Of a DNA stretch of 64,000 bases, positions 7,755 through 8,702 are shown piece by piece. Within the stretch, counting starts at the first letter, position 1. The number at the start of each line of letters is the position of its first letter. Position numbers and translations under genes: made by a program. The stretch lies in sequence record NC_134263.1; one strand, written 5' to 3'. The stretch comes from Escherichia phage T5_ev219. The notes beneath the pieces were generated by a model. It was not told where the DNA came from. It did not search any database and worked only from the letters and a program-made list of their open reading frames with translations.

Positions 7755-8702
7755 TTACTTGTTACGCATATCCATAATCATCTGGCCATCGTAACCAGTG
7801 CCAACCACAGTCTGCGGTACGCCACCTTGATATTTCTGAGCACGAATCATCTCAACTTCCAGTTGTTTCCAACGAATCATCTCAGGAGTAATGGTACGTT
7901 GCAGTGCGGCGTTAGCTTCAGCTTCTTTCTTAGCTGCGTACAGTTTAGCATCTGCGTCACGTTCATTAGCGATAGCTTGGTTGTTGCGAGCTTCACGATC
8001 TGCTTCTGCTTGTTTAACTTTTTGCTGTGCTTCCTGTTCAACACGAGCTAATTCAGCTTTAGCAGCATTAACCTGTTCTTCACGAACTTTGGTATTCTGT
8101 ACCTGTTCCATGATTACCGGTGGCAAAGTAATATCCTGAAGGAATACCTGCTTAACTGTGTAACCATATGGGCGTGCATACTCTTCAACTTCCTGTTGAA
8201 TTGCAGTTTGCAATTGAGCCTGAATTTTAGCATCAAACAAATCTTGTGCTTTAGGTACAGACTTACCAAACTCACGAATAGTAGACAGTAATTTTTCAGT
8301 TACATACTTGTCTAGTGCCTGATCCTGAGTACCTGCATTAATACGGTTAATCGGTGCCTTAGAACCATCAAACTGCAACATAACAGTCAGGTCAACAGTG
8401 GATTTAAACTTATCCTGACTAGGAACCTGAAGTTTATCTAATTTTACAGCAATATCTTTTGTACTGAAAGTATCGAAAGATGCAAACGGGTTTACAATAT
8501 GGAAACCAGGTAATACTGGATTAGGGTCTACTTTACCCAGGAATGTTTGAGTTTTAACCGTACCATCAGAAACAATAGTATATGAATTAAAAGCTAGGAT
8601 TAAACCTGCTAAACCAACTACAGCACCAATCCCCCAACGTTTAATAGTACGAATTACTTTCTGCTCAGAAGTTAGTTCTTTCATATTTTTAGTATTAAAC
8701 AT
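7755..8702 (-). CDS. SPFH/band-7 (HflK/HflC, stomatin-like) domain membrane protein
   Basis: N-terminal TM segment, SPFH-like core followed by long A/E/Q-rich coiled coil typical of HflK/C family; RBS AAAGGAAA. Confidence 0.6.
   Translation of the reverse strand: MFNTKNMKELTSEQKVIRTIKRWGIGAVVGLAGLILAFNSYTIVSDGTVKTQTFLGKVDPNPVLPGFHIVNPFASFDTFSTKDIAVKLDKLQVPSQDKFKSTVDLTVMLQFDGSKAPINRINAGTQDQALDKYVTEKLLSTIREFGKSVPKAQDLFDAKIQAQLQTAIQQEVEEYARPYGYTVKQVFLQDITLPPVIMEQVQNTKVREEQVNAAKAELARVEQEAQQKVKQAEADREARNNQAIANERDADAKLYAAKKEAEANAALQRTITPEMIRWKQLEVEMIRAQKYQGGVPQTVVGTGYDGQMIMDMRNK

Follow-up and report, generated by a model that had tools for sequence, protein, structure and literature searches.

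ORF reading of the 64,000-nt window, the whole stretch of DNA analysed here, gave on the minus strand a gene of 315 amino acids with an ATG start, which encodes a protein of the SPFH/band-7 superfamily. By sequence, the window belongs to a T5-like phage, and T5.080 is the orthologue of this gene in T5. The protein was found to be 99% identical to T5.080 (YP_006908) and exactly identical to that encoded by Salmonella phage VSe12, while S.Ent 1-35-3 also gave a 100% match in tblastn. Over 3 kb at the gene, DNA identity was 97-98.7% with VSe12, Escherichia phage OSYSP and many Tequintavirus genomes. In T5 and in the other orthologues of Tequintavirus and Epseptimavirus, the gene occupies the same slot as in the window, after tRNA-Arg and before a bidirectional terminator. 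The features of the locus and of the encoded protein are collected in Table 1.

Table 1. Position of the features of the T5.080 locus in the window and of the segments of the encoded protein.
Feature	Position	Strand	Basis
Sigma-70-type promoter-like site, TTGCTA-17-TATAAT, 10/12	9609..9637	-	position of T5 promoter P16-17
Non-coding leader of ~800 nt, equivalent of T5 "RNAX" (stable RNA)	8812..9608	-	T5 record
tRNA-like element in the leader	9313..9386	-	ARAGORN Ser-ACT; Rfam tRNA, 37.9 bits
tRNA-Arg(TCT), 34 nt upstream of the ATG	8737..8811	-	ARAGORN; Rfam tRNA, 49.3 bits; T5 tRNAR
Ribosome-binding site AAGGA, ~7 nt upstream of the ATG	8709..8714	-	sequence; ribosome-binding site annotated at the same place in Lindwurm and phiR2-01
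SPFH protein gene (T5.080 orthologue)	7755..8702	-	ORF, Pfam, AF2, Foldseek, dN/dS
Intrinsic terminator hairpin, 13-bp stem and U-tract, 24 nt past the stop codon	7700..7731	-	
Second hairpin with A-/U-tract flanks, bidirectional terminator common to the convergent plus-strand module	7645..7680		
Basic N-terminus	residues 1-22		
Transmembrane segment	residues ~23-43		hydropathy
SPFH alpha/beta domain	residues ~41-192		AF2 model
Coiled-coil helix of 76 residues	residues 195-270		AF2 model
Second helix	residues 273-290		AF2 model
Two short C-terminal beta strands	residues 299-311		AF2 model

The T5 record lists the same elements in matching order, i.e. P16-17, "RNAX", tRNA-Arg, T5.080, the major nick site and an "efficient bidirectional rho-independent terminator". 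Both tRNA elements exceed the Rfam tRNA threshold, and the remainder of the leader gave no Rfam match. The tRNA-like element inside the leader has an odd anticodon, ACT, and is given as tRNA-OTHER/pseudo in the VSe12 record. Co-transcription of the SPFH gene with the tRNAs is plausible from this arrangement, and the tRNA-linked layout appears to be the norm in T5-like phages. The early gene cluster of T5-like phages is the one holding the tRNA genes (PMC8624392). From the early-region position and the sigma-70-type promoter we infer early expression of the SPFH gene. At the other end of the unit, the two-hairpin region (7640-7760) showed z = -5.95, and the stem of the intrinsic terminator has compensatory changes in phiR2-01 and S133. 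A T5 nick consensus, Pu^GCGC, is situated at 7711/7710 (-) inside the terminator hairpin. It coincides with the "major DNA single-chain interruption" of the T5 record, and the motif GAGCGC is conserved in T5, phiR2-01 and S133.

As the initial annotation had described, the gene lies directly opposite a plus-strand module, with which it is convergent, the plus-strand ORFs ending at 7634. This module (5952..7634) comprises three ORFs of 346, 138 and 64 aa (T5.077-079). It has a GC content of ~0.47 compared to ~0.39 around it and is rich in low-complexity Gly/Ala/Gln sequence. No Pfam match was observed in the module, and its two larger ORFs match only PHROG families 8119 and 7894, which carry no assigned function. 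On the minus strand, ~1.6-2.4 kb upstream of the SPFH gene, a SleB-type cell-wall hydrolase gene (10328..10795; Pfam Hydrolase_2, with an apparent signal peptide, named 'endolysin' in RefSeq) overlaps the end of the gene for a small cREC_REC (cyclic-phosphate-processing receiver) protein (10783..11100). Further along the same strand, a 212-aa early-region ORF at 11543..12181 is named 'tail fiber protein' by PHROG and RefSeq and has no Pfam match; this label looks doubtful from its position outside the late structural module.

Comparison with orthologues gave a dN/dS of 0.015 against T5 and ~0.06 against Epseptimavirus and the Proteus phage, with an overall range of 0.015-0.065, and the gene is therefore a constrained coding gene under strong purifying selection. 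Synonymous sites are saturated between the window gene and the T4-like copies described below, which rules out a very recent transfer. A natural in-frame deletion of the gene was found in Escherichia phage NG_S8, an Epseptimavirus (locus L006, 3962..4129). The remnant is of 55 aa, with residues 1-18 fused to residues 274-315. Since a natural T5-like isolate carries this deletion, a gene of the T5.080 type is dispensable, and any effect of the SPFH protein must be conditional. The plus-strand module (T5.077-079) is apparently absent from NG_S8 as well.

The SPFH fold of the protein is certain. Residues 52-225 matched Pfam Band_7 (PF01145) with E=1.8e-17 and 64.4 bits, compared to a gathering score of 23.6. 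The structure was modelled by AlphaFold2 from an alignment of 35 family sequences, and the model (mean pLDDT 76) has an N-terminal helix at residues 12-39. In Foldseek against the PDB, the whole chain matched the protomers of all solved SPFH cages with probability 1.00. The E-values were 1.4e-14 for erlin-1/2, 3.5e-13 for prohibitin, 5.6e-12 for HflK/C, 6e-12 for stomatin, 6e-10 for QmcA and 2e-8 for flotillin, with the major vault protein (MVP) also matched, and SPFH families score so much alike in this search that it does not discriminate between subfamilies. Identity to the structurally solved SPFH proteins in these alignments was 13-20%. There is one hydrophobic segment, with a mean Kyte-Doolittle value of 1.8, and it is conserved across the family. 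Thus the initial annotation's call of a phage-encoded SPFH/band-7 membrane protein was borne out by the profile score, the single transmembrane segment and the structural matches to SPFH cages. The PF01145 profile check which it had proposed gave a match above the gathering score, and neither a lack of SPFH similarity nor a match to a virion protein was found.

The long helix also shows the kind of variation expected of a cage wall. Some family members carry insertions in this coiled-coil helix, and in 7/7 cases these were of exactly 11 or 22 residues (e.g. AKKFAAQREAE); in the family alignment they fall at residues ~249-251 of the window protein. Insertion of whole hendecads preserves the register of the helix, as packing in a cage wall would demand.

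Two other readings of the protein were weighed against this fold. The T5 RefSeq entry describes T5.080 as a "lipoprotein … contains single transmembrane domain", and many derived records as well as PHROG 200 carry the same name, from which the product would be an outer- or inner-membrane lipoprotein. The window protein has no cysteine (0) and no lipobox pattern, and 30/35 family members likewise possess no cysteine. As no lipobox is possible without cysteine, the reading is refuted for the window copy, its remaining chance is practically negligible, and "lipoprotein" in PHROG 200 and RefSeq is an inherited mislabel. Apart from this wrong label, no material difference was observed between the window gene and T5.080. 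A structural virion component is highly improbable too. Trace SPFH-domain peptides have been found in virion preparations of unrelated large phages, namely a Vi01-like phage (3 retrievals) and Eneladusvirus (listed). Against this, the T5.080 gene is part of the early tRNA region and not of the late structural module, its product has a membrane-scaffold fold and belongs to PHROG category 'other', and it is naturally deletable, as seen in NG_S8. Moreover, in the phiR2-01 paper, which counts 16 T5 virion proteins by proteomics, the major ones are named only from T5.118-T5.152.

The orientation of the protein in the membrane was predicted from the charges around the transmembrane segment. Lys and Arg together average 3.2 in the 15 residues before the segment, compared to 1.7 after it. 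The N-terminal side is richer in 27/35 members, so the bias is moderate, with 8/35 members not showing it. Under the positive-inside rule, the N-terminus is predicted to be cytoplasmic and the SPFH domain periplasmic. Such an N-in, periplasm-facing topology would be that of HflK/C and prohibitins and the reverse of QmcA, which faces the cytoplasm.

The description of the protein as HflK/C-like in the initial annotation holds at the level of the superfamily and of predicted topology, but not below it. NCBIfam scanning gave no family at E<=1, with neither an HflK nor an HflC model matched, and no HflK/C chain was found at E<=0.01 in a phmmer search of the PDB. Only 1 SPFH gene was detected in the 64-kb window by tblastn and the family HMM, so there is no K/C pair. 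Compared with the E. coli HflK/HflC-FtsH complexes (PDB 7WI3, 7VHQ, 9CZ2), the protein shares the SPFH fold, the long helix and the C-terminal cap (Foldseek E 5.6e-12 to 7e-8), while identity is 16-19% and the long cytoplasmic N-terminus of HflK is missing. As there is no NCBIfam match, a single copy, no partner gene and at most 20% identity to solved SPFH proteins, the protein is not an HflK or HflC equivalog.

Among the other SPFH systems, the cages of prohibitin-1/2 and erlin-1/2 (PDB 8RRH, 9O9Z, 9VVJ) ranked highest in Foldseek (E 1e-14 to 1e-12) and resemble the protein in length (~270-300 aa) and in the single N-terminal anchor. They are, however, eukaryotic organellar hetero-oligomers, with 15-19% identity to the T5.080 protein. 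Only two solved relatives were detected by sequence in the phmmer search. These are E. coli QmcA of the SPFH-NfeD pair QmcA-YbbJ (PDB 8Z5G), the best sequence match among solved structures with E 3.3e-6, and prohibitin-1/2 with E 8.5e-5 and weaker. One public record names a family member 'prohibitin family protein'. The SPFH subunit QmcA is homo-oligomeric and works with an NfeD partner encoded in the same operon. By Pfam and record annotation, no NfeD neighbour was found in the window, the T4-like phages, the Proteus phage, the Vibrio phage, Morganella, Providencia or the methylotrophs. Flotillins of the YqiK/FloT type, which are of ~400-550 aa with an extended flotillin/EA-repeat domain, were ruled out by the length of 315 aa and by the lack of a flotillin Pfam match; flotillin was also a weaker Foldseek match (TMt 0.31-0.37). 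Taken by its sequence relations, the T5.080 protein belongs to a distinct SPFH clade of solo genes and is not an HflK/HflC orthologue.

To the extent covered by tblastn, the protein is present in 724 phage records, and the match covers 80% of its length or more in 678 of these. Identity was 88-100% in T5-like phages, 74-79% in T4-like phages of Klebsiella, Enterobacter and Cronobacter and in the Proteus Grimontviridae phage, 61-64% in T4-like Aeromonas phages and 32-41% in Vibrio phages. The T4-like SPFH proteins (RB43 ORF139c, 44RR ORF098c, Aeh1 ORF064c, GAP161_127) belong to the same clade, with 61-79% identity over nearly the full length, but they come from another phage family and their genes lie in the tk-rI-nrdC hyperplastic zone with no adjoining tRNAs. 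A 2006 paper (PMC1524935) gave the SPFH Pfam match for 44RR ORF098c, Aeh1 ORF064c and RB43 ORF139c, the first two of which are cited as similar by the note in the T5.080 record itself. Several public records carry labels such as "SPFH domain / Band 7 family protein", "PHB domain-containing protein", "protease regulator" and "putative modulator of FtsH protease". Hence the gene and its family are already known and annotated, and nothing goes beyond the public annotation here except the correction of the "lipoprotein" label. The initial annotation had considered a phage copy transcribed with tRNAs unusual; this does not hold for a gene which is standard in T5-like phages, has a fixed slot after tRNA-Arg and recurs across hundreds of phage records.

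When 1.84 billion cluster representatives were searched exhaustively with a profile, only 1,951 matches were obtained at E<=1e-3, and 341 remained at E<=1e-10. As delimited by these profile matches, the clade is compact and stays separate from the very large SPFH families of cells. Scanning of one genome per species revealed chromosomal copies with 57-59% identity in many Morganella and Providencia species, and copies with 31-41% identity mostly in methylotrophs, along with other Gammaproteobacteria. As judged from these similarities, the clade is common to large virulent phages of Gammaproteobacteria and to stand-alone genes of Morganella, Providencia and methylotrophs. In Morganella and Providencia the gene is found alone among metabolic and transport genes, its neighbours differ between the two genera and no prophage is present.

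Neighbouring genes were compared across these genomes. In T5-like phages, T4-like phages, Proteus and Vibrio phages and bacterial chromosomes, none of the adjoining genes encodes NfeD, FtsH, a protease or another SPFH protein. In GAP161 and Lychee the neighbours are rI/rI.-1 and an NMNAT/NUDIX enzyme, in Aeromonas phage 31 tk and small ORFs, in Proteus phage P59 RtcB and an ATPase, and in the Vibrio phage small ORFs and a putative membrane lipoprotein. Proximity to rI hints at a role in superinfection exclusion or in lysis timing, where a cage in the inner membrane would block the entry of DNA from a secondary phage or modulate holin and antiholin. The T4-like gene lies in the tk-rI zone: in GAP161 and Lychee it directly follows rI/rI.-1, and in Aeromonas phage 31 ~3 kb separate it from rI. 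Exposure of the protein to the periplasm, as predicted, would fit such a role. A protein of a Vi01-like phage with an SPFH Pfam domain, which may or may not belong to the clade, is likewise listed next to a 'superinfection exclusion protein' (PMC3220722). However, the tk-rI-nrdC segment is a hyperplastic cargo region where synteny within the T4-like phages is not independent evidence, and in T5-like phages, the Proteus phage and the Vibrio phage the neighbouring genes have nothing to do with lysis or exclusion. As the T4-like site is such a cargo region and the other contexts disagree, proximity to rI lends weak support. Chromosomal members in non-prophage contexts argue instead for a general membrane function, and a dedicated role in exclusion or lysis timing seems quite unlikely. 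The initial annotation had suggested superinfection exclusion and modulation of host membrane proteases as hypothetical roles, and neither of the two is singled out by a partner gene or by the genomic context.

The combined pattern is best explained if the T5.080 protein forms an early accessory SPFH cage in the inner membrane which acts on a conserved host component, with FtsH as the leading candidate. This reading is tentative, and we would put its probability at roughly 0.45. One N-terminal helix would anchor the protein and leave the short basic N-terminus cytoplasmic, and the periplasmic part would consist of the SPFH domain, the long helix and the C-terminal beta cap. The subunits would self-assemble into a large homo-oligomeric ring or cage and fence off a patch of the host inner membrane. 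By analogy with the solved SPFH proteins, the T5.080 protein probably works as a homo-oligomeric ring or cage. The lack of an adjacent partner gene and the single SPFH gene of the window suggest that such a homo-oligomer acts on a common host component. The client would be a conserved component of the host membrane or the bilayer itself, since the solo gene moves between unrelated phages and chromosomes without a partner. HflK/C and prohibitins enclose AAA proteases of the FtsH family, and every host concerned has a conserved FtsH. Because these enclosing proteins have the topology that is predicted for the T5.080 protein, FtsH may be regarded as the leading candidate, though as a client it is speculative and proposed by analogy. 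By capturing such a client, the phage could change the turnover of membrane proteins or the organisation of the membrane in the infected cell. Morganella and Providencia, being Enterobacterales, presumably have HflK/C as well. A chromosomal member of the clade beside presumed HflK/C in these genera argues that the job of the clade is distinct from that of HflK/C.

The same portability of the gene is also compatible with a client-free role in membrane integrity. In this alternative, a periplasm-facing scaffold would stabilise the inner membrane and the proton-motive force during the long latent period of T5, or would blunt depolarising effectors of abortive infection, with no specific client. 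As a solo gene that depends on no partner, the T5.080 gene is passed between large virulent phages whose hosts differ, and its laboratory dispensability fits a conditional, stress-related role. Cellular SPFH proteins have been implicated in membrane repair and organisation (PMC8581546). On the other side, none of the PADLOC defence models matched at E<=0.1, no link to a known anti-defence gene was observed, and the proposal is no more specific than the preferred cage reading. We consider it unlikely.

No functional study of T5.080 and no experimental study of any phage SPFH protein was found in the literature searched, and a genome paper calls SPFH function in phages "poorly understood" (PMC7760394). 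A bolder version of the preferred cage reading, to which we give little credence at present, would be a self-sufficient viral SPFH cage which, soon after infection begins, either captures a conserved host inner-membrane machine, with FtsH as prime suspect, or seals the membrane against secondary phages or membrane-acting immunity. If this were true, a phage SPFH protein would for the first time have a defined role, and it would be a portable tool that Demerecviridae, Straboviridae, Grimontviridae and Vibrio phages pass between them. The clade offers a good entry point to phage SPFH proteins, as it combines a tractable model phage, T5, with a solo gene which is strongly conserved and naturally deletable, and which has homologues in several families of large virulent phages and in a few bacterial chromosomes.

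Some recurring neighbours of the gene were also recorded. In methylotrophs the recurring neighbours are accD-folC, or flavoenzymes of the NDH-2 or Mqo-like type. Distant chromosomal members are repeatedly situated directly upstream of a same-strand ORF of 430-450 aa in ten loci (L022, L023, L026, L028, L031-L033, L036, L049 and L050), all from chromosomes of methylotrophs and other gammaproteobacterial MAGs. Four of the neighbour ORFs were scanned and proved to be quinone-linked flavoenzymes, of NDH-2 type (L022, L026) or Mqo/DAO-like (L033), or else FolC. In L033 and L043, FolC is positioned upstream of the SPFH gene together with accD. The recurring chromosomal neighbour of 420-450 aa had been considered as a possible long NfeD protease, and this was rejected on its identification as FolC, NDH-2 or Mqo-like enzymes. 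The adjacency of flavoenzymes may echo a link reported between respiration and HflK/C (PMC12005517), or may be mere lineage synteny.

An NMN adenylyltransferase gene follows the SPFH gene both in Epseptimavirus, where it is of the NadR type (L071, 2413..; L072, 2408..), and in T4-like phages, where it is of the NMNAT/NUDIX type (L004, 6063..7118; L070, 4577..5638). Transfer of SPFH and NMNAT as one cassette was rejected, the two enzymes being only 20% identical, and the adjacency is either coincidental or convergent.
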